Source: Dehalococcoidia bacterium (GTDB taxonomy: Bacteria > Chloroflexota > Dehalococcoidia > Lucifugimonadales > Australimonadaceae). Taken from it: a DNA stretch of 64,000 bases. How positions within the stretch are numbered: position 1 is the stretch's first letter; every line of letters starts with the position of its first letter. Both the position numbers and the translations under genes were made by a program. Of the stretch, positions 3,249 to 32,839 are shown piece after piece. The notes under the pieces are model-generated. The model made no database searches. It was not told the origin of the DNA and worked only from the letters and a program-made list of their open reading frames with translations. The stretch spans positions 1,165,704 to 1,229,703 of the forward strand of contig OZ220477.1 in assembly GCA_965116015.1 (NCBI GenBank), given 5' to 3'.

Positions 3249-4145
3249 ATGCAGCGCCCACCCAGCATCCAGCACGAGCCCGTCATGACACAGCAAGCCA
3301 TCAACGCCCTCAACGTCCGCGACGGCGGATCCTACGTCGACTGCACCCTCGGCGACGGCGGACACGCCGCCGCCATCCTCGACGCCTCTGCCCCCTCCGG
3401 CAGACTCCTCGCCCTCGACGCCGACCCCGAAGCCATCGCCTACTCCGCCAACCGCCTCCGACCCTACGGCGACAGAGTCATCCTCTCCAACGCCAACTTC
3501 AACTCCATCCACCACGAAACCCGCGCCCACAACTTCTCCCCATCCGACGGCTTCCTCTTCGACCTCGGCCTCTCCTCAAGACAACTCGACGCCGAAGAAC
3601 GCGGCTTCAGCTTCCAGCGCCCCGCACCCCTCGATATGCGCTTCACCCCAGAAGGCCCAACCGCAGCCGACCTCGTCAACAACCTCCCCGAAGAAGAACT
3701 CGCCAATATCATCCAACAATTCGGCGAAGAACCCCGCGCCCGACGCATCGCCCGCGCCATCGTCGCCGCGCGACCCCTCAACAACGCCCTCCGCCTCGCC
3801 CAAACCGTCGCCCGCGCATCAGGCTACCGCCGAGGACGCACCCACCCCGCCACCCGAACATTCCAGGCCCTCCGCATCGCCGTCAACAACGAAACCAACA
3901 ACCTCCGTCTCGGCCTCGCACAGGCCGCCCAAACCCTCGCACCCGGCGGACGCCTCGTAACCATCGCATACCACTCCCTCGAAGACAGGGAAATCAAACG
4001 CTTCATCGCCAGCGGACAACTCTCCCCCGTCAACAAACGCGTTATCAAACCCGACAAAACAGAAATCGCTCGCAATCGGCGAAGCCGCAGCGCCCGAATG
4101 CGCATCGCCGAAAAACCCGAGCCAGGAGGACGCGTATGCCGCTAA
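3249..4145 (+). CDS. rsmH: 16S rRNA (cytosine1402-N4)-methyltransferase RsmH
   Basis: H-E-P-V-M N-terminal motif, DCTLGDGGH SAM-binding motif, DLGLSS, and the HSLEDR box. The start is placed at MQRPPSIQHEPVM so the HxPV motif is included. Confidence 0.9.
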   Translation: MQRPPSIQHEPVMTQQAINALNVRDGGSYVDCTLGDGGHAAAILDASAPSGRLLALDADPEAIAYSANRLRPYGDRVILSNANFNSIHHETRAHNFSPSDGFLFDLGLSSRQLDAEERGFSFQRPAPLDMRFTPEGPTAADLVNNLPEEELANIIQQFGEEPRARRIARAIVAARPLNNALRLAQTVARASGYRRGRTHPATRTFQALRIAVNNETNNLRLGLAQAAQTLAPGGRLVTIAYHSLEDREIKRFIASGQLSPVNKRVIKPDKTEIARNRRSRSARMRIAEKPEPGGRVCR

Positions 4146-4282
4146 CCCTCCGTGCCCCTCCAAACCCTCCCCCCCAGGACACGGACAACCGCCCTTGGAA
4201 ACCCAGTGATCTCAGGAAACCCAGCGCCTCGCAGCGAGGCCAAGGCCGCAAAGCCAAAACCTAGTAGGGGGTTACGCACACC

Positions 4283-5359
4283 ATGATGGAATCGTACGAC
4301 AAAGAGCTCCAGAGCCACGCAGAAGACGGCATCGCCCAAGTCAAGGTCATCGGCGTCGGCGGCGGCGGATCCAACGCCGTCAACCGCATGTACAACAAGC
4401 GCGTCCCAGGCGTCGAATACCTCGCCATCAACACCGACGTCCAGCACCTCCTCCTCCTCGACGTCCCCGTCAAAGTCCGCATCGGCGACAAACTCACCCG
4501 CGGACTCGGCGTCGGCGGCGACCCCGAGATCGGCCGCGCCGCCGCCGAAGAATCCCGCGAGGAAATCTACCAGGCCGTCCGCAACGCCGACATGGTCTTC
4601 ATCGCCTGCGGAATGGGCGGCGGAACCGGCACCGGCGCAGCCCCCGTCGTCGCCGAAGTCGCCAGAGAAACCGGAGCCCTCACCATCGGCGTCGTCACCA
4701 AACCCTTCGGCTTCGAAGGCCGCAGACGCTCCCAGAACGCCGACGACGGCCTCGCTCGACTCCAGGAAAGCGTCGACACCCTCATCGTCATCCCCAACGA
4801 CCGCCTCGCCTCCACCTGCGACGACTCCGTAACCGCCGACAGCGCCTTCAAAATGGCCGACAACATCCTCCGCATGGGCGTCCAATCCATCGCCGAACTC
4901 GTCACCGTCGCCGGCGAAATCAACCTCGACTTCGCCGACGTCAAATCCATCATGAGCGGCACCGGCCCAGCATGGATGGCCATCGGATCCGCCGGCGGCG
5001 AAAACCGCGCCGTCGAAGCCGCCAAAGCCGCCATCAACAGCCCCATGCTCGACGTCAGCATCGCCGGCGCACGCGGCGTCCTCTTCAACATCACCGGCGA
5101 CAGCTCTCTCACCCTCAAGGAAGTCCAGATGGCCGCCGATGTCATCTCCGAAGCCGTCGACCCCGAAGCCAACATCATCTTCGGTATGGTCACCGACAAC
5201 TCAATGGAAAACCACATCCGCGTCACCATCATCGCCACCGGCCTCCCAGAATCCGACAACAGCGAAGACCTCGGACAGGACGAAATCTCCGCCTTCCTCC
5301 GCAAAGCCCTCAGCGACGGCGTAGAACTCCCCCCCTTCCTCAAGTCCGCCCGATTCTAG
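4283..5359 (+). CDS. ftsZ: cell division GTPase FtsZ
   Basis: The tubulin signature [28 protein letters not shown] and NTDVQ are present. The protein is 358 aa. Confidence 0.97.
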
Positions 5360-5381
5360 AGAGGCCCCCACTCGCCCAATC

Positions 5382-5404
5382 GTCTCCCGCATACCGCGGG
5401 AGAC
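5382..5404 (+). terminator. 9-bp stem hairpin just downstream of ftsZ (no U-tract)
   Basis: gtctcccgc / atacc / gcgggagac, starting 23 nt after the ftsZ stop. No T-run follows, so terminator function is uncertain. Confidence 0.3.
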
Positions 5405-5855
5405 TGCGGGGCCCCCTACATTCCGCTCTCCTCCCAACCCTGGGCGGGAGAGCGGAAAGGGGGCATAAGCCCGAACCCATTGCCCGCTACCCCTCCCCAC
5501 GCGCGGGCAACATCCAGGGGCAGACCTCCCAAAACCTGCCCTATCGATCCAAGGCCCGCTCCCCCGCCGCAAAAGGAGCCGGCCCGCCTCCAAAGGCCCC
5601 CGCGACTCAACTCCGGGGGCCTTCTCGCGCCCGCCGACCCAGCCACGCCTCCCGGCTCCAGATCCGGCGCCGCCTTACCCAAACCCCCGCGACCCTCCTG
5701 CATCGCGGCTCCGCATGCAGGTATCGCTGCGGCTGCTACCCGCCCGCACGACACCTACCTTACTCCAGGAGCCCTCCGCTCCCAGCTGGTCGCTGTTGCC
5801 CCGCCCGCGCGACACCTACCCTGTTCTGGCGTCCCAACCCCGCTCCCTACACAAC

Positions 5856-6086
5856 CCAACCCCCTCAACATCCCCCCACAGCTCCCCGAACATCCCCCAA
5901 CAAACCAGCTCCCTCCAGCAACAAACACGATCAGAAACCACCCTCCCGCCAACAACAGCGCCCCTCCCTGCCAGCCCAACAACCACACTCTCCCCCATCC
6001 GTCTGCGACCCCAACCCCCTCAACATCCCCCCACAGCTCCCCGAACATCCCCCAACAAACCCAGCTCCCTCCAGCAACAAAACACG
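5856..6086 (+). repeat. two copies of a ~75-bp direct repeat (5856-5930 and 6011-6086)
   Basis: ccaaccccctcaacatccccccacagctccccgaacatcccccaacaaac(c)agctccctccagcaacaaa(a)cacg occurs twice. The copies differ by two 1-nt indels, so no reading frame is conserved between them. Confidence 0.85.
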
Positions 6087-6435
6087 CCACTACCTACCCC
6101 AAACAGCCGCTCTCGACCACCGCGCCGGCCCGCGCCCCCTTGCCCATCCCAAACAGCCCATACCCCTCCCCAAACAACCCCCCATCCCACAACATCTAGC
6201 CGCCCTCGCCGCCGAAACAAGCCCATCTTGCGGAAACTCGACCCAACCCCTTGACTTCTCCCGTCAAAACCCCAACAATCCGCCATGCGAACCATACCCG
6301 CCCAAACCAGCGCCCCAACCTCACTCCCCACGCCCACCCTCGCCCCTTAACATCCGCTCATACCACCCCGAACAGCGCCGAACACGCCAGCTCCCCGACG
6401 CAACAAACACGGTCAGCAGGCAAGGTCGTGACACC

Positions 6436-7026
6436 ATGCGCTGCCCCAAATGCGGCGACCCAGACACCCGAGTAACCGACTCCCGCGACTCCGGCATGGA
6501 GATCCGACGACGACGCATGTGCTCCAAATGCTCCGTGCGCTTCACCACCTACGAGCGCGTCCAGCCCGACGCCCTCTCCGTCGTCAAACGCGACGGCCGG
6601 CGCGAAGACTTCACCCCGCACAAACTCCTCCACAGCATCCGCATCGCCTGCGTCAAACGACCCATCCCCAGCGGAGCCCTCGAAAAACTCGTCCACGACA
6701 TCGAAACCGACCTCCGCCAGCCCGCTAAATCCGAAATCCCCTCCTCCGCCATCGGCGAAGCCGCCCTCAACCGCCTCAGAACCCTCGACACCGTCGCCTA
6801 CATCCGCTACGCCAGCGTCTACCGCGACTTCGACTCCCTCGACGGCTTCATCGCCGAAGCCCAAGCCCTCCTCATCCCCAACCCCGAAACCGAAGACAAC
6901 TCAAGCCAGCTCGAACTCATCCCCAACGAGTTCACCCCACCCCCCAAACGCCAACCCCGACGCGGACGCCGCCCCGGAATCACCGAACCCATCCTCGCAA
7001 GAAACAACGCCCCCTCCCCAAACTAA
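6436..7026 (+). CDS. nrdR: transcriptional repressor NrdR with a C-terminal low-complexity extension
   Basis: MRCPKCGDPDTRVTDSRD...RRRRMCSKCSVRFTTYE zinc ribbon, followed by an ATP-cone (VVKRDGRREDF...AYIRYASVYRDF). The last ~40 aa are extra relative to typical NrdR length. Confidence 0.92.
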   Translation: MRCPKCGDPDTRVTDSRDSGMEIRRRRMCSKCSVRFTTYERVQPDALSVVKRDGRREDFTPHKLLHSIRIACVKRPIPSGALEKLVHDIETDLRQPAKSEIPSSAIGEAALNRLRTLDTVAYIRYASVYRDFDSLDGFIAEAQALLIPNPETEDNSSQLELIPNEFTPPPKRQPRRGRRPGITEPILARNNAPSPN

Positions 7027-7447
7027 CCCCCCAAACCCTAACAGCCTCTCCCGCGCGGAACGCTTCAGCGTCGCCATCTATAGGCTCCCAGAATCGCATT
7101 CCCCCCCTTCCGCGCGGAACGCGCCGCCGCCATCGACCACGTTCCCCGCCCCCGCGAGCGCCCTCCTCCCGCGCAAACGCATCATCGCCCGCGAACAGCG
7201 CCCCGAGCCCAGCCCGCCACGCGCGAACCCTGGCCCTCCGGCGAACAGCCGCCCGCCAACAGCTCCCGCGAACCCCAACTCCCCTTCACTCGCATTCAAG
7301 CCTCGACGCGTCGAGGCCCCCGGAGCGCTCAGCTCCCCTGAACGCTCCCCTCCCTACTCCTCAGGCCCCTCTCGATGCGCCACGGGAGCGGGCCAGCGGG
7401 CCCGACCCTAAGGATGGGTCGAGCCCGCCATCCCCCCTCCCTCCGAT

Positions 7448-7476
7448 TTGCCCCCGCCAACCCCCGCCCCTATACT
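7448..7476 (+). promoter_or_regulatory. sigma70-like promoter candidate for pdxA (TTGCCC-17 nt-TATACT)
   Basis: -35 at 7448-7453, a 17-nt spacer, and -10 at 7471-7476. The ATG at 7489 is only 12 nt past the -10 element, implying a leaderless or very short leader mRNA. Confidence 0.35.
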
Positions 7477-7488
7477 CCCCTCGCCCTC

Positions 7489-8508
7489 ATGAGCGAAATA
7501 AGCGAATCCCCGCGCATCGCCCTCACCCTCGGCGACCCCGTCGGCATCGGCCCCGAAGTCGTCGCCAAAACCCTCTCAAACCCCGACCTCTGGCGGGACG
7601 TCCTCCCCCTCGTCGTCGGCTCCCCCGACGTCCTCGACAAAGCCCTCTCCCTCATCGGCTCCCCCCTCCGCGCCCGCGAAATCCCCAACCCGAACGAATC
7701 CGCCCCCCACGAACGCATCCCCGTCATCTCCCCGCGCCACGACCCCGGACTCGCCGACCTCCCCTACGGCGTAGTATCCCCCCGCGCAGGAGCCGCCGCA
7801 GTCGCCTGGGCGACCGCCGCCGCCCGCCTCGCCCTCAACAACAACGTCAACGCCATCGCCACCGCCCCCATCAGCAAAGAAGCCGCCAAACTCGCCGGAC
7901 ACGACAACTTCGGCCACCAGGAAATCTACCAGAACCTCGCCCAAGTCCCACGAGTCCTCACCATGCTCGTCGCCCCCGGACTCCGCGTCGTCCACCTCAC
8001 CACACACCACCCCCTACGCAACGCCCCCAACCACGTAACCCGCGACCGCATCCTCGAAGCCCTCACCCTCACACACAACTTCTTCGCCCAACACGGATTC
8101 CCCAACCCACGCATCGGCGTCGCCGCCCTCAACCCCCACAACGGCGAAGCCGGCCTCATCGGCAACGAAGAAATCAACCACATACAACCCGCCGTCCACG
8201 ACGCCAACCAACTCAACATCAACGCCATCGGACCCATCCCCGCAGACTCCGTCTTCACCCAAGCCGTCGACGGCCTCTACGACGTCGTCCTCGCGATGTA
8301 CCACGACCAGGGACACATCGCCGTCAAAATGCGCGACTGGGCCGCAAGCCTCACCCTCAACATCGGCCTCCCCTTCCTCCGAACATCCGTCGACCACGGA
8401 ACCGCATTCGACATCGCCGGAAAAGGCCTCGCCGACCCCACCGGAATGATCGCAGCCGTCCGCTACGCCGCTCACATCGCCAGCTCCGGACGCATCCCCC
8501 CAAACTAA
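7489..8508 (+). CDS. pdxA: 4-hydroxythreonine-4-phosphate dehydrogenase PdxA
   Basis: Blocks IALTLGDPVGIGPEV, GHQEI, NPHNGE.G and MYHDQGHIAVK..SVDHGTAFDIAGKG are present. The start is at MSEISESP. Confidence 0.9.
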   Translation: MSEISESPRIALTLGDPVGIGPEVVAKTLSNPDLWRDVLPLVVGSPDVLDKALSLIGSPLRAREIPNPNESAPHERIPVISPRHDPGLADLPYGVVSPRAGAAAVAWATAAARLALNNNVNAIATAPISKEAAKLAGHDNFGHQEIYQNLAQVPRVLTMLVAPGLRVVHLTTHHPLRNAPNHVTRDRILEALTLTHNFFAQHGFPNPRIGVAALNPHNGEAGLIGNEEINHIQPAVHDANQLNINAIGPIPADSVFTQAVDGLYDVVLAMYHDQGHIAVKMRDWAASLTLNIGLPFLRTSVDHGTAFDIAGKGLADPTGMIAAVRYAAHIASSGRIPPN

Positions 8509-8597
8509 CCCCCAGCCCTCCCCCTGCCCAGCGCTATACTCGACGCTCGCCCAGCGTCGCCCCAACCGGCGCTCCCCCTGCGCGAGAGGTCCCCCCA

Positions 8598-9404
8598 ATG
8601 CGCGTTTCCTTCATAGGCGGCGGCGTAATGGCCGAAGCAATGCTCAGCAGAGCCCTCGCCGCAGGCCTCTGCAACCCCGGCGACATCACCGTCGCCGAAC
8701 CCATCGACGCCCGCCGCAACGAACTCGCCTCCCGCTACAACATCAACGTCTCCCCCAACAACCCCAACGCCGCAGCCGCCGGAGGCCTCCTCGTCCTCGC
8801 CGTCAAACCACAGCACATCCACCACGCCTGCCGCGACCTCCACAACGCCCTCCACGCCGAACAACCCGTAATGTCCATCGCCGCCGGAGTCCCCATCGCC
8901 GCCATCTCCCTCGCCCTCGCCCACAACCCCATCATCCGCGCAATGCCCAACGCCCCCGCCCAGATCGGCGCCGGCGTCTCAGTCTGGACCGCAACCCCCC
9001 AAGTCAACGACAACCACCAGCGCGACGCAGCAGCCCTCCTCCAAACCCTCGGCCTCCAGTGGCGCGTCGACACCGAAGACTACATAGATATGGCCACCGC
9101 CATCTCCGGCAGCGGACCAGCATACGTCTTCACCTTCATCGAAGCCCTCGCCGAAGCCGCCGTCCACATCGGAATCCCCCGCGATATGGCCCTCACCCTC
9201 GCCCTCGAAACCACCGCCGGCGCCGCCAAACTCGCCAGAGAATCCAACCAAAACCCCGCCATCCTCCGCCAAATGGTCACTTCCCCCGCAGGAACCACCG
9301 CCGCAGCCCTCCGCGAACTCGAACACGGACGCCTCCGCTCAACCATCATCGACGCCGCAACCGCCGCCCTCCGGCGCGCCCGCGAACTCGGAAACAACCA
9401 ATGA
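8598..9404 (+). CDS. proC: pyrroline-5-carboxylate reductase
   Basis: FIGGGVMAEAM Rossmann N-terminus, AISGSGPAYVF, and the TSPAGTTAAAL signature. Confidence 0.92.
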   Translation: MRVSFIGGGVMAEAMLSRALAAGLCNPGDITVAEPIDARRNELASRYNINVSPNNPNAAAAGGLLVLAVKPQHIHHACRDLHNALHAEQPVMSIAAGVPIAAISLALAHNPIIRAMPNAPAQIGAGVSVWTATPQVNDNHQRDAAALLQTLGLQWRVDTEDYIDMATAISGSGPAYVFTFIEALAEAAVHIGIPRDMALTLALETTAGAAKLARESNQNPAILRQMVTSPAGTTAAALRELEHGRLRSTIIDAATAALRRARELGNNQ

Positions 9405-9658
9405 AAGAAATCCTCTTCCTCCTCCTCGACATACTCTGGTTCCTCCTCATCGCCAACGTCATCCTCTCCTGGCTCATCGTCGCCGGCGTGCGCAACGACA
9501 TCGTCCGCCAGATCTACTCCGCATCCAACCAACTCCTCGACCCCATCCTCCGACCCATCCGGCGCGTCGTCCCCCCCATCGGAATGATCGACATCACCCC
9601 CCTCATCGCATTCATCCTCATCATCGTCGTCCGGCAGATCCTCAATCGCATCCTCTAA
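9401..9658 (+). CDS. YggT family membrane protein
   Basis: 85-aa protein with two TM segments (ILSWLIV...; IDITPLIAFILI) and the typical P.R...P..G.iD.tP pattern. ATGA overlap with the proC stop. Confidence 0.8.
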   Translation: MKEILFLLLDILWFLLIANVILSWLIVAGVRNDIVRQIYSASNQLLDPILRPIRRVVPPIGMIDITPLIAFILIIVVRQILNRIL

Positions 9659-9713
9659 ACCCCTCCATCCCACTCCCTATCCCCAACGGATAGCGCCCAT
9701 CACGCCGCCCAGA

Positions 9714-10727
9714 ATGAACCCCGCCCCCACAATCCTACCCCCCGCGGACAGCGCCCCCGCCATCGTCTCCGACTCCAACATCGCCCTCCCCCAAAACCTC
9801 GCCAAAGGCCTCCCCCTCTTCACCGCCCCCCTCGAACTCCACATCGGCGGCCAAACCTACGCCGACGGCGTCGACATCACCCCCTCCCGCTTCTACGAAC
9901 TCCTCGACAGCGGCGAACAACCCAAAACCTCCGCCCCAACCCCAGGCGCATTCCTCCGCGCATTCCAACAAGCCCAATCCCGCTCCAACAACATCATTTG
10001 CATCACCATCTCCTCCAACCTCAGCGCCGCCTACAACTCCGCCGCAGAAGCCGCCTCCCTCGCCGCCTCCCAACTCCCAACCCTCCACATCACCCTCATC
10101 GACTCCCGAACCGCCAGCGCCGCCCAAGCCCTCATCGCCCTCGACGCCGCCCGCGCCGCCGCCCGCAACGCCCCGCTCCACGAAACCCTCCACATCATCC
10201 AGCAGCGCATCGCCCACACCATCCTCTTCGGCTCCCTCGGCTCAATGCGACACCTCTCCCGCAGCGGACGCATCCCCCTCCCCCTCTTCTGGATAGCATC
10301 CCTCCTCAACGTCAAACCCGTCCTCCAACTCTCCAACGGAACCATCAGAATGATCGACCGACCCCGCAGCGACGCCAGAGCCCTACAACGCATCGTCCGC
10401 CTCGCCGAACGCCGCCTCGACGGCTCCCCCGCCCGCATCGCCGTCATCCACGCCAACGCCCCCGAAAAAGCCCAACGACTCGCCAACGCCCTCCGCCAAA
10501 CCCTCCCCATACAAGAACTCTTCACCGCCGAACTCACCCCAGTCATCGGAGCCCACACCGGACCCGGACTCGTCGGCTGCGCCCTCCAACCCGCCAACCG
10601 CGACCCCAACCCCGCCCCTCCCCCCAACCCCAACGACCCCCCGCAAACTCCCCCTCCCTCCCCAACAGACAAGGTATCCTCGCCCGAAACCCCCTCCCCC
10701 CAAAACCCGCAACCGCGCACCCCCTAA
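9714..10727 (+). CDS. DegV family fatty-acid-binding protein with a Pro-rich C-terminal tail
   Basis: Blocks IVSDSNIALP, TSAPTPGAFLRAF, ITISSNLSAAYNSA and TPVIGAHTGPG are present. The last ~45 aa are P/N/T low-complexity. Confidence 0.85.
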   Translation: MNPAPTILPPADSAPAIVSDSNIALPQNLAKGLPLFTAPLELHIGGQTYADGVDITPSRFYELLDSGEQPKTSAPTPGAFLRAFQQAQSRSNNIICITISSNLSAAYNSAAEAASLAASQLPTLHITLIDSRTASAAQALIALDAARAAARNAPLHETLHIIQQRIAHTILFGSLGSMRHLSRSGRIPLPLFWIASLLNVKPVLQLSNGTIRMIDRPRSDARALQRIVRLAERRLDGSPARIAVIHANAPEKAQRLANALRQTLPIQELFTAELTPVIGAHTGPGLVGCALQPANRDPNPAPPPNPNDPPQTPPPSPTDKVSSPETPSPQNPQPRTP

Positions 10728-10768
10728 CCCCCCTCGCCCGCCTCCAAACACAAACAGGAGCAACCCTA

Positions 10769-12286
10769 ATGGTCACCCTCCGCGCCCAAGCCGGCGACAT
10801 CGCCCGATTCCCCGCCGACGCCGTCATCGTCAACCTCTTCGACGGCGTAACCCGCCCCGCCGGCGCAACCGGCGCCGTCGACAACGCCCTCAACGGCGCC
10901 ATCTCCCAACTCATCGCCGACAACGAAATCACCGGCAAGCAAGGCGAGATCGCCCACATCCACACCCTCGGGAAAATCCCCCCAAAACGCGTCGTCATCG
11001 TCGGCCTCGGCAACCGCGAAAAACTCAACCCCCACGCCATCCGCGACCTCGCTGCCGAAGCCGCCCGGTACGCCCAGCGCATCGGCGCCCGCAGCGCCGC
11101 ATCCATCGCCCACGGCGCAGGCATCGGCGCAATCAACCCCGCACACTCAGCCCAGGCAATAGCCGAAGGCTCCATCCTCGGCCTCTACCGATTCAACCGC
11201 CACCAAGCCAGCAACAACGACAACAAGCTCCTCAACGAAATCACCCTCGTCGATCACGACCCATCCCGCATCCCAGCCCTCGCCGACAGCCTCCGAAAAG
11301 GCGCCGTCCTCGCCGAATGCGCAGCCCTCGCCCGCGACCTCGTCAACGAACCCGCAAACGTCATCAACCCCGCCCGCCTGGCCGAAATCGCAACCGACAT
11401 CGCCCGCGACGCCAACCTCCACATCAGCGCCCTCAACCGCGACGACATCGCCCAGCACGGAATGAACGCCATCCTCGCCGTCTCCTCAGGCAGCGCCAGC
11501 GAACCGCGACTCATCTCAATGGAATACCTCGGCGACCCCAACCAACCCGAAAACAACATCGCCCTCATCGGCAAAGGAGTCACCTTCGACTCCGGCGGCA
11601 TCTCCATCAAAGGAGCCAACCGCATGTGGGAAATGAAAGGCGATATGAGCGGCGCAGCAGCCGTCATCGCCGCCATGAAAGCCATCGCCAACCTCCAACC
11701 CAGAATCAACGTCTTCGGCGTCGTCCCAGCCGTCGAAAACATGCCCTCCGGAACCGCCCTCCGTCCCGGCGACATCATCCGCGCTATGAACGGCAAAACC
11801 ATCGAAGTCGACAACACCGACGCCGAAGGACGCCTCATCCTCGCCGACGCCATCTCCTACATCCGCCAAACCAAAAACCCCCAACGCATCGTCGACATCG
11901 CCACCCTAACCAGCGCCGCCATCGTCGCCCTCGGACACGTCTCCTCAGCCCTTATGGGAACCTCCCAAACCCTCGTCGACTCCATCCTCGCAGCCTCCCG
12001 ATCCACCGGCGAGAAACTATGGCAGCTCCCACTCTTCGACGAATACAAACGCCAGATCCGCTCCGACTACGCCGACATCAAAAACACCGGCGGACGGCCC
12101 GCCGGCGCCATCACCGCAGCCCTCTTCATCGCCGAATTCACCGAAAACGCCCAATGGGCCCACCTCGACATCGCCGGAACCTTCCTCTCCGACCGCCTCG
12201 ACGGACACCTCGTCAAAGGCGCAACCGGCGTCCCCGCCCGAACCCTAGTCCAACTCGTCGAAAACCTCGCCGCCGCCAACAACTAA
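10769..12286 (+). CDS. pepA: leucyl aminopeptidase (M17)
   Basis: NEPAN, GKGVTFDSGGISIK and the NTDAEGRLILAD signature. AGGAG lies 8 nt upstream of the ATG at 10769. Confidence 0.95.
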   Translation: MVTLRAQAGDIARFPADAVIVNLFDGVTRPAGATGAVDNALNGAISQLIADNEITGKQGEIAHIHTLGKIPPKRVVIVGLGNREKLNPHAIRDLAAEAARYAQRIGARSAASIAHGAGIGAINPAHSAQAIAEGSILGLYRFNRHQASNNDNKLLNEITLVDHDPSRIPALADSLRKGAVLAECAALARDLVNEPANVINPARLAEIATDIARDANLHISALNRDDIAQHGMNAILAVSSGSASEPRLISMEYLGDPNQPENNIALIGKGVTFDSGGISIKGANRMWEMKGDMSGAAAVIAAMKAIANLQPRINVFGVVPAVENMPSGTALRPGDIIRAMNGKTIEVDNTDAEGRLILADAISYIRQTKNPQRIVDIATLTSAAIVALGHVSSALMGTSQTLVDSILAASRSTGEKLWQLPLFDEYKRQIRSDYADIKNTGGRPAGAITAALFIAEFTENAQWAHLDIAGTFLSDRLDGHLVKGATGVPARTLVQLVENLAAANN

Positions 12287-27195: not shown

Positions 27196-27648
27196 ATGAG
27201 CGGCTTGCATTTCCCAGATCTCTCCATCAAAGGGTTCCGCGGCTTTAAAGAGCTTTGCCTCCCTCAGTTTGGCCGCGTCACTCTAATAACAGGGAAGAAC
27301 AACACTGGAAAAACCTCGGTGCTGGAAGCGCTGTACATACATGCGCATAGCGCGTCTCTAGCAGCTTTAGCAAGGTGTCTTGACTCTCGGCTAGAGTCCT
27401 TTCTTCGCAGCCTCGTTCCCCAACCGAACCCCCTCTACGACCACGCTGTCAACAGTGTGCAGGAGATTTCCCAACCTCTATTCAGCCACTCAGACGAACT
27501 CAAGGCAATCATCCACACTTGGCTTGCGTGGCAAAAGGAGCCAGGCAGGCCCTTCGGGACAGCCATCAGCGCACAATTCCTCAACGCCAACGCGCCCGAA
27601 GCGGTCGCCTTAGCATCCTGGTTAAAGCGGCTGTTCCATGGTGGCTAA
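27196..27648 (+). pseudogene. N-terminal fragment of an AAA_15/ABC-type (OLD/RecF-like) ATPase
   Basis: IKGFRGFKEL...VTLITGKNNTGKTSVLEAL (Walker A), but the ORF stops after 150 aa with no Walker B or signature motif. It sits in a locally lower-GC patch. Confidence 0.5.
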
Positions 27649-29013: not shown

Positions 29014-29180
29014 TATCTCCTCCGAAGCGTTCTTTAGCCGATTCCCCAATGGCGAGCATACATCCCCGGCGGCGGAACGCCAACAGACGCCAGCCAGAGA
29101 GCGCATCCCTTTCAGACAAAGACCCCGCCCAAAGCCATCCGGGGGCTGACCGGCGCACCCGGCTACGGTACGCTATACGT

Positions 29181-29603
29181 ATGATCCGCGTTACCGACGC
29201 CATCCAACTCGCCGAGCGCGAGATCGAGACCTCCTACGTAACCGCGTCAGGCCCCGGCGGACAGAACGTCAATCGCGTAGCCACCGCCGCCCACCTGCGC
29301 TTCGACGCCGCTGCATCCCCCTCGCTCCCAGACGACGTCAAGCGGCGACTCCGAAGCATCGCAGGCAAGCGCCTCAACGCCGGCGGAGTGCTCGTCATCA
29401 AGGCGCAGCGTTACCGAACTCGCGAGCGCAACCGCGAGGACGCTCTCGATCGCCTCGTCCGCATCATTGCAAGAGCAGAGCGCCCGCCGCGCTCCCGCCG
29501 TCCCACCCAGCCAACGACGCAATCCATCGAGCGCCGCCTCCAGGAAAAGCGGAGGCGCGCGCAGACCAAACAGACCAGAGCGCAAGCCATCGACGAGGAG
29601 TAG
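29181..29603 (+). CDS. arfB: alternative ribosome-rescue factor ArfB (peptidyl-tRNA hydrolase, GGQ domain)
   Basis: ASGPGGQNVNRVATA GGQ motif plus a basic C-terminal tail. 140 aa. Confidence 0.9.
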   Translation: MIRVTDAIQLAEREIETSYVTASGPGGQNVNRVATAAHLRFDAAASPSLPDDVKRRLRSIAGKRLNAGGVLVIKAQRYRTRERNREDALDRLVRIIARAERPPRSRRPTQPTTQSIERRLQEKRRRAQTKQTRAQAIDEE

Positions 29604-29652
29604 CGGCAACCCGCGCCGCGCTCCCCAGCCCCAAGCGGACAAAGGAGCAACG

Positions 29653-30846
29653 ATGCCCCGACTCGAAGACCTCTCGGAAGTCGCGCGACAGGGCCACCTC
29701 AATTTTCCCGCGTTCGACCACGACAACGCGCCATGCGCGCCGTTCACGAAACCGCTCTCCGAGGCCAAACTCGCCCTCGTCACAACTGCCGGGCTTCACC
29801 TCCGCGGCGACGCTCCGTTCGCCAGCGGCGACGAATCGTATCGCGTCATTCCCTCGTCGGCCCTGGCGCGCGACATCATCCAAAGCCACGCGAGCATCGG
29901 GTTCGACCGTGCCCCCATAATGCGCGACATCAACGTAACGTTCCCCATCGACCGCCTGCGCGAGCTAGTCGCGCACGGCGAACTGGGAGCGCTCTCCGGC
30001 AACTTCTACTCCTTTATGGGCGCCCAGCGCAGCCCCCGCCGCATCGAGCGGGAAACCGGCCCCGAGGTCGGCCGCCTGCTGCTCGACGAAGGCGCCGACG
30101 CCGCCCTCCTCACGCCCACCTGACCGAACTGCACGCACACGGTCAGTGTGCTGGCGCGGGCAATCGAAGAAACCGGCCTCCCAACCGTAACGATCGCCCT
30201 CATCAAAGAGCACGCGCAGCGCGTGAAGCCCCCTCGCGCCCTATGGGTCCCGTTCCCGTTCGGATGCGCGCTCGGCAAGCCCAACGACCCTGAGTTCCAG
30301 CACAAGACGCTCGCGGCCGCCCTCTCGCTGCTGCCCCTCGGCGCCGATCCCAGCCGCCCTGCGCCCATCCTCGCCGAATTCCCCGAAGACGGCGACGCTC
30401 TCGCGCGGCTCGTGCAGGCAAGCGATGCGCGCCCCGACCTCACCGCCCCAACCGCCGACCCCGCCAACGAAATCACCGCGCTCCGCGGCTACTACGAACG
30501 CTGGACAGCCGAGCACGACAACCGCACCGCAGTCGGCCTCAGCGGCGTCCCCCAGCGACAGTTCCGCGGCCTCGTCCGCTACCTGCAAGCGTTCGCCCGC
30601 GGCGACGACGCCTCCTACGACCTCGCGCCACAGGAATTGCCCGCCGGACGCTTCCTCCGCCTCGCCTCCGACGACCTCAAGGCGTTCTACTTCGAGGCTC
30701 GCTTCTCCCAGCGCCCCGACCAGCAGCACAACGACCTCCAGCGCTGGTTCTGGGCCGAGACCGCTATGGGCCCCCTGCTCGCCTCGGTCGCCGCCCGCCT
30801 CTCGGAGCAGGGCGACAACCGCAGCGCCCAAGGCATCGCCCGCTAG
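29653..30846 (+). CDS. glycine/sarcosine/betaine/D-proline reductase selenoprotein B family (GrdB/PrdB-like) protein, with in-frame UGA (Sec) at 30121-30123
   Basis: ORFs 29467..30123 and 30148..30846 are in the same frame, separated only by the TGA. The joined sequence reads ...ALLTPT-U-PNC-THTVSVLARAIEETGLPTV...VPFPFGCALGKP, matching the U-x-x-C region and P-x-G motif of the GRDB family. AAGGAG RBS before the ATG at 29653. Confidence 0.8.
30135..30151 (+). promoter_or_regulatory. SECIS-like hairpin (gcacac-GGUCA-gtgtgc) starting 11 nt after the UGA
   Basis: 6-bp perfect stem with a GGUC-containing apical loop, at the spacing expected for bacterial SECIS elements. Confidence 0.55.
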
Positions 30847-31318: not shown

Positions 31319-32839
31319 ATGGCGGAACAGAACTTCCCTGACAACGTCCTTTACGAACTCGACAACCTCGACGTCCTCCGGGGAATGAACAGCGAAACAG
31401 TCGACCTCATCGCCACCGACCCGCCGTTCAACACCCAGCGCAACAGGTCGGGAACCGCAGGGTTCTACGTCGACAACTGGAAGTGGGGCGACACCGGCAT
31501 CCTCCCCGACCAGTGGGCATGGAACGAGGTGCACCCCGTTTGGCTCGAACAGATCAAAGACGACAAACCAGCCCTCTACGAGGTCATCGACGCCGCGCGA
31601 GCCTGCCACGGAGAAGACATCGCCGCCTTCCTCTGCTTCCTCAGCGTCCGCCTCCTGGAGATGCACCGTGTGCTCAAGCCTGCCGGCAGCATCTACCTCC
31701 ATTGCGACCACACCGCCAACGCCTACATCCGAATGGCGATGGACGCTGTATTCGGCCCCAAGAATTTCCGGAACGAAATCGTCTGGAACTACCGACGATG
31801 GCCCGCTAAGTCGCGCAATTTCCAGCGGATGCATGACACTATCTACTGGTATTCGAAAGGAACAGAGTGGACATGGAACCAGCAGTACGAAGCCTTAGCG
31901 CCTTCCACACTTAAGGCGGACGGGGGAAAGAAGATTCTCAACGTGTTCGATGAGCACGGCCATCGGGTTCGAGGCGTTAAAACCGGTGAAGACTCTCCCG
32001 GCGCGCTAATGCGTTCTGTTTGGGACATAGGCTTCATCTCTCCTACGGCAAAAGAGCGCACCGGCTCCCCTGACCAAAAACCGCTCGCGCTGTACGAGCG
32101 GATAATCCTAGCGAGCAGCAACCCGGGCGACCTCGTGCTAGACCCGTTCGCGGGATGTGCAACCACAATCATCGCGGCGCGGAAGCACGGCAGGCGATGG
32201 GTGGGCGTCGACCGCCGCAAAGACGCAAGGTTTCACGTCGTGATGCGCATGATGGACATCAAGGCCAAAGACGCCGAACAACTCCGCAAGGAGCGCCCCG
32301 ACCTCAGCGCCTGGCTGGATGATCAGCTCTCCCGCTACGACGCGCACTACGCCATCGAGCCGCCCGAGCGAACAGACAGCGGCGAGCACGCGGCTCCCGA
32401 ACTTGAGCAAGTGTTCTTCCCCATTCGCGGCGAGCGGCAGCCTTGGCAGCGCCTCGCCCACGCCGAAATGCAGGGCGTCCTCAACCGCGTGCAAGCCGCG
32501 AGCGACGGCGCGCAGACGATCTGCGCCGGCTGCGGGCGAGAGCTCGAATGGCAGTTTATGGAGCTCGACCACATCACCCCGAGAGCCGACGGCGGCGAGA
32601 ACTACATCACCAACCGGGTAATGCTCTGCCGCCCATGCAACGGGAAGAAGAAACACAATCTCACCCTCTCCGGCCTGCGCCGGCAGAACCGGCAAGACGG
32701 CTGGATGAAGGACGAGCCAAAGGCCCAGACCGTCCTGATGACCGTCCAACGGCAAACGCAGAAGATGCGCGACTCCTGGTCGAGCCCCGACGTGCAGGCG
32801 CTCATCCTCTCCGTGCGCAGCCAGCAGCCGCAGACATAG
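31319..32839 (+). CDS. beta-class N6/N4 DNA methyltransferase fused to a C-terminal HNH endonuclease domain
   Basis: Motif IV TDPPFN near the N-terminus and motif I DPFAGCATT later (beta-class order). The C-terminus has CAGCG...DHITPRADGG..NRVMLCRPCNGKK (HNH). Confidence 0.85.
   Translation: MAEQNFPDNVLYELDNLDVLRGMNSETVDLIATDPPFNTQRNRSGTAGFYVDNWKWGDTGILPDQWAWNEVHPVWLEQIKDDKPALYEVIDAARACHGEDIAAFLCFLSVRLLEMHRVLKPAGSIYLHCDHTANAYIRMAMDAVFGPKNFRNEIVWNYRRWPAKSRNFQRMHDTIYWYSKGTEWTWNQQYEALAPSTLKADGGKKILNVFDEHGHRVRGVKTGEDSPGALMRSVWDIGFISPTAKERTGSPDQKPLALYERIILASSNPGDLVLDPFAGCATTIIAARKHGRRWVGVDRRKDARFHVVMRMMDIKAKDAEQLRKERPDLSAWLDDQLSRYDAHYAIEPPERTDSGEHAAPELEQVFFPIRGERQPWQRLAHAEMQGVLNRVQAASDGAQTICAGCGRELEWQFMELDHITPRADGGENYITNRVMLCRPCNGKKKHNLTLSGLRRQNRQDGWMKDEPKAQTVLMTVQRQTQKMRDSWSSPDVQALILSVRSQQPQT

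Follow-up and report, generated by a model that had tools for sequence, protein, structure and literature searches.

A gene split at an in-frame TGA in a Dehalococcoidia genome very probably encodes a 397-residue PrdB/GrdB-superfamily selenoprotein without a pyruvoyl partner

Gene organization at the locus

The window considered here, meaning the whole stretch of DNA that was analysed, covers 64,000 nucleotides of a Dehalococcoidia bacterium whose genome is a single contig of 2.39 Mb and is 96% complete. Positions 29653–30846 of its forward strand hold one reading frame, from the ATG at 29653 to the TAG at 30844–30846, and the sole internal stop is the TGA at 30121–30123, which is codon 157. 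Two mechanically called ORFs, 29467–30123 and 30148–30846, share this frame. A sequence-only reading of the same DNA had taken them for halves of one gene interrupted by nothing but the TGA, with a U-x-x-C motif in the read-through peptide; the sequence and its translation bear this out, and the peptide matches as quoted. After joining, the gene has 397 codons and the read-through product runs ...DAALLTPT-U-PNC-THTVSVLARAIEETGLPTVTIAL..., with ...LLTPT-U-PNC-THTVSVLARAIEETGLPTV... around the selenocysteine (Sec). Cys160 (TGC, 30130–30132, forward strand) is the U-x-x-C partner of Sec157 and is invariant both among the Cys-type homologues and in an alignment of 42 loci.

The gene appears complete from its translation and from end-to-end alignment with Cys homologues of 394–396 residues and with the 42 loci, among which M1 and P2 are invariant. 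A Shine-Dalgarno-like GGAG (29644–29647, forward strand) lies 5 nt before the start codon. Scans for promoters and terminators gave no signal exceeding that of shuffled sequence.

Its neighbours in the window are a gene for an ArfB-type peptidyl-tRNA hydrolase upstream on the same strand, an F420/LLM-class oxidoreductase gene on the opposite strand, and a methyltransferase-HNH fusion downstream. The ArfB-type ribosome-rescue gene (29049–29603, forward strand; NF006718, 162.7 bits) ends 50 nt upstream of the selenoprotein gene, and its true start is probably later than the ORF suggests because the profile begins at residue 45. We considered it as a functional partner and rejected it, since the synteny is confined to nine close Dehalococcoidia relatives. 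Across 76 loci no immediate operon partner is constant, with the best-conserved neighbouring family present at 13.

The downstream fusion (31319–32839, forward strand) joins an N6/N4 DNA methyltransferase to an HNH nuclease in 506 residues, and its HNH part weakly resembles the HNH domains of IscB and Cas9d. Farther upstream, a 150-residue ORF (27196–27648, forward strand) combines an N-terminal AAA_15/RecF-like Walker-A piece (residues 9–52) with the C-terminal end of DUF3226 (profile positions 122–207 of 208); it resembles either a remnant or an ATPase gene fused through a deletion.

Selenocysteine at codon 157

Two classes of relatives emerged from a search of 5.8 billion proteins, many proteins of 227–233 residues that cover only the part after the TGA and proteins of 394–396 residues that cover the whole. 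The full-length homologues align end to end over the 397 residues and have Cys as residue 157, in a TPT-C-PxC-THT motif that is invariant among 11 Cys homologues. Homologues in which the two halves stand as separate genes, with no Cys or Sec aligned to this codon, had been named as the finding that would speak against a single gene; the full-length forms are instead continuous, with Cys at codon 157.

We then scanned DNA from one genome per species, which yielded 80 related loci from about ten phyla, including Dehalococcoidia and other Chloroflexota, Rokubacteria/Methylomirabilota, Acidobacteriota, Binatia, Actinomycetota, Vulcanimicrobiota, and others. The codon aligned to 157 is TGA in 77 of the 80 and TGC in the remaining three, in agreement with the earlier suggestion that homologues should show either Cys or TGA there. 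In a set of 60 genomes related to that of the window, 36 have a match, including all six of the same genus, and every one of the 30 near-full-length matches contains exactly one TGA.

The machinery for Sec insertion, which the sequence-only reading had proposed to look for, is present in full. The genome encodes tRNA-SeC(tca) along with selA (511 bits), selB (320 bits, or 341 bits with neighbouring matches in frame) and selD (393 bits). Genome-wide reassignment of TGA was considered and rejected because TGA terminates 281 of 896 long ORFs and is thus an ordinary stop. The selD gene, which lies outside the window (C1:1719414-1720331), has an in-frame TGA of its own, at 1719444 within SCAG-U-AGK, followed after 22 nt by a GC-rich hairpin; SelD, too, is a selenoprotein here.

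A conserved hairpin downstream of the UGA

In bacteria a SECIS-type hairpin is bound by SelB-GTP-Sec-tRNA(Sec), and the UGA is recoded on the ribosome. The predicted SECIS of this gene (30131–30155, forward strand) was delineated by comparative pairing and consists of a 6-bp stem (30135–30140 with 30146–30151), a GGUCA loop (30141–30145) and two outer pairs (30131–30132 with 30154–30155). Its core, GCACAC-GGUCA-GUGUGC at 30135–30151, starts 11 nt past the UGA, exactly as the sequence-only reading had described it. Across homologues the structure has a core of 6–7 bp, from which two outer pairs are separated by a 2x2 internal loop.

That reading had also called for covariance analysis of homologues, and here the hairpin proved to be kept with compensatory changes. 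Over 71 distinct TGA-bearing sequences, 93.9% of cells are paired, against 22–58% in controls with a slid 3' partner, and the observed pairing/covariation score was reached by none of 500 shuffles. Compensatory changes affect three pairs, with AU replaced by GC in nine sequences and GC by UA or CG in three, plus changes in the closing pair. Codons 156–167 have the lowest synonymous-codon entropy of the gene (0.56 bits versus a mean of 1.22). V166 is encoded by GTG in all 41 sequences and G165 by GGT in 23 of 25, the latter being an unusual choice in GC-rich genomes, yet one needed for stem pairing. In all three Cys-form loci with DNA the stem is lost and its 3' arm broken.

Folded as a single sequence, the 71-nt region is not exceptional (z = -0.85), and its minimum free energy structure competes with the SECIS stem. 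An Rfam scan of 29900–30400 likewise returned no SECIS family, only matches at chance level, so the evidence for the hairpin is comparative. This comparative record shows a predicted hairpin-directed recoding of the UGA to Sec by the Sec machinery of the host.

Family assignment and predicted structure

The joined protein matches PF07355 (GRDB) at 44.4 bits against a gathering score of 22, the outcome anticipated by the sequence-only reading, with residues 21–156 on profile positions 209–347 of 347. The last position of the model thus falls on residue 156, one residue short of the TGA codon. We infer that PF07355 was built from sequences truncated at UGA and hence never covers the catalytic residue. 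The model also stops one residue before Sec in the true GrdB of another genome of the same order, G040.

The label of GrdB family that the locus first received stands in part. Membership in the PF07355 superfamily is supported, but the closest curated model is that of PrdB (TIGR04483, 155.9 bits, residues 29–225), not GrdB, and even this score is below the 300-bit equivalog cut-off. GrdB-type models align by their C-terminal halves only, as with GrdB profile positions 204–417 on residues 18–224, and TIGR01918 reaches 55.8 bits against a curated cut-off of 65.45. Identity to GrdB is ~28%. The proposal that Sec occupies the position characteristic of the selenoprotein B family was upheld by BLASTP, in which U157 aligns on U368 of the bona fide GrdB selenoprotein of G040 (itself a TIGR01918 match of 476 bits).

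Two domains can be distinguished. The PrdB/GrdB-like alpha/beta domain spans residues ~21–225 (29713–30327, forward strand), as defined by PF07355, TIGR04483 and the alternating strands and helices of an AlphaFold2 model. Residues ~230–397 (30340–30843, forward strand) form a C-terminal domain, helical from ~270, that has no match in Pfam or NCBIfam and is modelled with pLDDT mostly >90. When 1.84 billion representative proteins were searched with this domain of ~170 residues, 270 matched at E <= 0.001. Among the 150 matches listed, all lengths fit post-TGA fragments, other partial calls or full-length forms of ~395 residues, so we regard the domain as family-specific. Six other genomes of the same order (G042, G044, G048, G049, G054, G060) carry shorter paralogues that match only residues ~21–230 at 35–43% identity, each with one in-frame TGA; they probably represent further PrdB-like selenoprotein subfamilies that stand alone and lack the C-terminal domain.

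The AlphaFold2 model, computed on a 43-row alignment (pLDDT 91.2, pTM 0.91), predicts an alpha/beta N-terminal domain followed, from about residue 270, by a C-terminal domain made up entirely of helices, and places U157 between strand 150–154 and helix 160–172. A sequence search of the PDB gave no match at E <= 1. Foldseek comparison of the model with the PDB gave nothing at E <= 0.001; the best match had an E of 3.7e-3 and TM < 0.3. The best Foldseek matches were photocobilin proteins, which we rejected as fold relatives because a TM of 0.23–0.29 is too weak. In the 42-locus alignment ~40 residues outside the motif are invariant, including H49, R64, S78, S81, D85, D92, N94, D100, R101, R195, Q216, E273, D341 and W365. 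As judged from these alignments, the invariant residues and the C-terminal domain argue for a specific substrate.

Relationship to known families

A family named 'Proline reductase PrdB' ranked third in abundance among the selenoprotein families of the Sargasso Sea data, with 42 Sec forms versus one Cys form (PMC1088965), and was among the top families of the GOS dataset, with 235 Sec and 110 Cys forms (PMC2398784). It was defined by pfam07355 plus UxxC (Table 2 of PMC2398784), and by that definition the protein of the window resembles it, having both features with Sec first. Sec forms outnumber Cys forms in all three collections (42:1, 235:110, and 77:3 at the present loci), and both the surveyed family and that of the window occur in non-fermentative environmental bacteria. 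By domain and motif the gene is therefore assigned to an environmental UxxC selenoprotein family that has been catalogued since 2005, rather than to a new family. What the surveys give is the family label; neither the long form with its C-terminal helical domain nor the absence of partners is described in them.

Compared with PrdB of C. sticklandii and C. difficile, the protein is homologous over ~200 residues. Sec is at the equivalent position (157 here, 151 in PrdB) and the Cys three residues downstream is shared. It differs in its length, 397 versus ~240 residues, owing to the extra C-terminal domain, in lacking a PrdA pyruvoyl subunit or prd operon in its genome, and in its host, a Dehalococcoidia bacterium rather than a Stickland fermenter. 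With GrdB/GrdF/GrdH (TIGR01917/TIGR01918) it shares the C-terminal half of those proteins, Sec on Sec, but lacks the N-terminal ~200 residues of GrdB.

Absence of reductase partners

The sequence-only reading had remarked that no grd or prd partner is adjacent to the gene, and a wider search extends this to the whole genome for PF09338, GrdC and GrdE. PF09338 (PrdA/GrdE) has no profile match in the window's genome, although the same profile detects the positive controls in genomes G009 and G040, and 35 of the 37 gene-carrying relatives lack it too. By tblastn, neither GrdC nor GrdE was found in the window's genome or at the 76 loci, in contrast to glycine reductase systems. The GrdA profile (PF04723) also gave no match in the window's genome, in a search that carried no positive control. 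The missing pyruvoyl partner implies that this is not a canonical proline or glycine reductase.

One exception to this pattern comes from G040 (L097, G040:C1:1974000-1988000, 3759–11577), where an orthologue immediately precedes a cluster made up of grdC-beta (NF040746, 614 bits), a grdE/FarE-like gene and a true grdB. The GrdB-family selenoprotein encoded there has the Sec motif U-G-T-S, with no Cys at +3. This arrangement was repeated at none of the 76 loci.

Cys-type homologues in actinomycetes

Cys-type proteins from actinomycetes (Umezawaea, Streptomyces) have the same architecture from end to end at 44–47% identity, and are named 'glycine/sarcosine/betaine reductase selenoprotein B family protein' by NCBI. 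They keep the invariant TPT-C-PxC-THT and a C-terminus of GIAR, but have Cys in place of Sec and no SECIS. On our tree these forms group in a clade with a long branch that falls within the actinobacterial Sec forms, and at least three Sec/Cys changes are required.

Six of the seven Cys-type loci examined (L077, L079, L082, L098, L100, L102) sit in catechol ortho-cleavage clusters. These contain a LysR regulator and catechol 1,2-dioxygenase, mostly together with muconate cycloisomerase, and several add dienelactone hydrolase and maleylacetate reductase. A gene for a GcvH-like lipoyl protein is directly downstream at two Cys-type loci and nearby at a third (L098), and a DUF1330 protein recurs alongside these GcvH-like genes. 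In one protein (P0026) the Cys-type sequence is fused to a muconolactone-isomerase domain. One of the catechol clusters also carries a CLC chloride channel. No homologue of catechol dioxygenase or maleylacetate reductase was found in the window's genome, and with no catechol cluster there, the actinomycete context is not transferable to the window's gene.

We speculate that the long forms are self-contained, PrdA-independent Sec/Cys reductases in which the C-terminal domain replaces the pyruvoyl subunit. In actinomycetes they might act on an intermediate of (halo)catechol ortho-cleavage, e.g., a muconolactone or dienelactone derivative, with the GcvH-like lipoyl protein as dithiol donor, and the Sec forms of Dehalococcoidia, Rokubacteria and related groups might perform a related reductive C-X cleavage. 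We consider this proposal as a whole improbable.

Proposed mechanism and alternative explanations

Taken together, positions 29653–30846 very likely represent one gene whose product is a selenoprotein of 397 residues in the PrdB/GrdB superfamily, with predicted subunit-B-like chemistry that would proceed without a pyruvoyl subunit, GrdA or GrdC. Our view of its catalytic cycle derives from homology to PrdB and GrdB and from published work on PrdB. In the C. difficile enzyme, proline is bound to the pyruvoyl group of PrdA and its alpha-carbon is attacked by Sec151 of PrdB; Sec is essential, the U151C variant being inactive (PMC11229817). By analogy, the selenolate of U157, at the N-terminal end of helix 160–172, would attack a substrate carbon or an oxidised partner. 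C160 would then resolve the adduct, leaving a Se-S bond that a dithiol, on either thioredoxin or a lipoyl protein, could re-reduce. Unlike PrdB and GrdB, the 397-residue protein would act without the pyruvoyl subunit (PrdA/GrdE), GrdA or GrdC, and binding of the substrate or of a partner is probably the task of the helical C-terminal domain specific to the family.

Another possibility, which we consider rather unlikely, is a general thiol/selenol-disulfide oxidoreductase that cleaves no small molecule itself and serves as redox carrier or resolver for another enzyme. The predicted location of U-x-x-C at a strand-helix junction would be classic redox-carrier geometry, residues 153–178 give a weak Thioredoxin_3 match (E 0.08), and the searches for PF09338, GrdC and GrdE uncovered no substrate-activating partner. 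Against such a carrier role, the ~40 invariant residues outside the motif and the 170-residue domain suggest a specific substrate pocket. In addition, all characterised PrdB/GrdB relatives, including PrdB, GrdB and fluoroacetate reductase, to our knowledge cleave C-X bonds.

A further reading, in which the protein is subunit B of a true D-proline, glycine, sarcosine or betaine reductase and the partner genes are located at another place in the genome, is very improbable. PrdB is the best curated match, and the G040 orthologue does adjoin a grdC-beta, grdE-like and grdB cluster. However, G040 has a separate true GrdB of its own, the partners are absent at all 76 loci, and the protein scores under the equivalog cut-offs with a C-terminal domain foreign to both PrdB and GrdB. 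Distant partners were rejected on the negative searches of a single-contig genome that is nearly complete, with a PF09338 control that works. As for the TGA being a real stop, through two genes, a pseudogene or a sequencing error, standard ORF callers do split the gene, and hundreds of database 'proteins' of 227–233 residues start after the TGA. We nevertheless regard this as extremely improbable given the same TGA at 77 of 80 loci in many phyla, with flanking codons conserved at the protein level. Codons 158–165, located after the TGA and before the next start codon, are themselves conserved and align with the Cys-form proteins. Conservation of the RNA hairpin and the presence of the Sec machinery also speak against a stop.

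Implications

The single-gene interpretation corrects an annotation that extends well beyond this genome, as gene callers split the gene and databases hold hundreds of 227–233-residue halves of the same family. PrdB-like proteins ranked with the most abundant selenoprotein families of the 2005 and 2008 ocean surveys. No relative in the PDB was matched by sequence or by fold. The family is widespread, in about ten phyla here, and raises the question of what role a PrdB-type selenoprotein plays without a pyruvoyl partner. If the long forms are indeed self-contained reductases as speculated above, non-fermenting bacteria would be using the selenoprotein-B fold for a new class of reaction. The genomic context of the Cys-type forms in culturable actinomycetes offers a genetic way into the function of the family.
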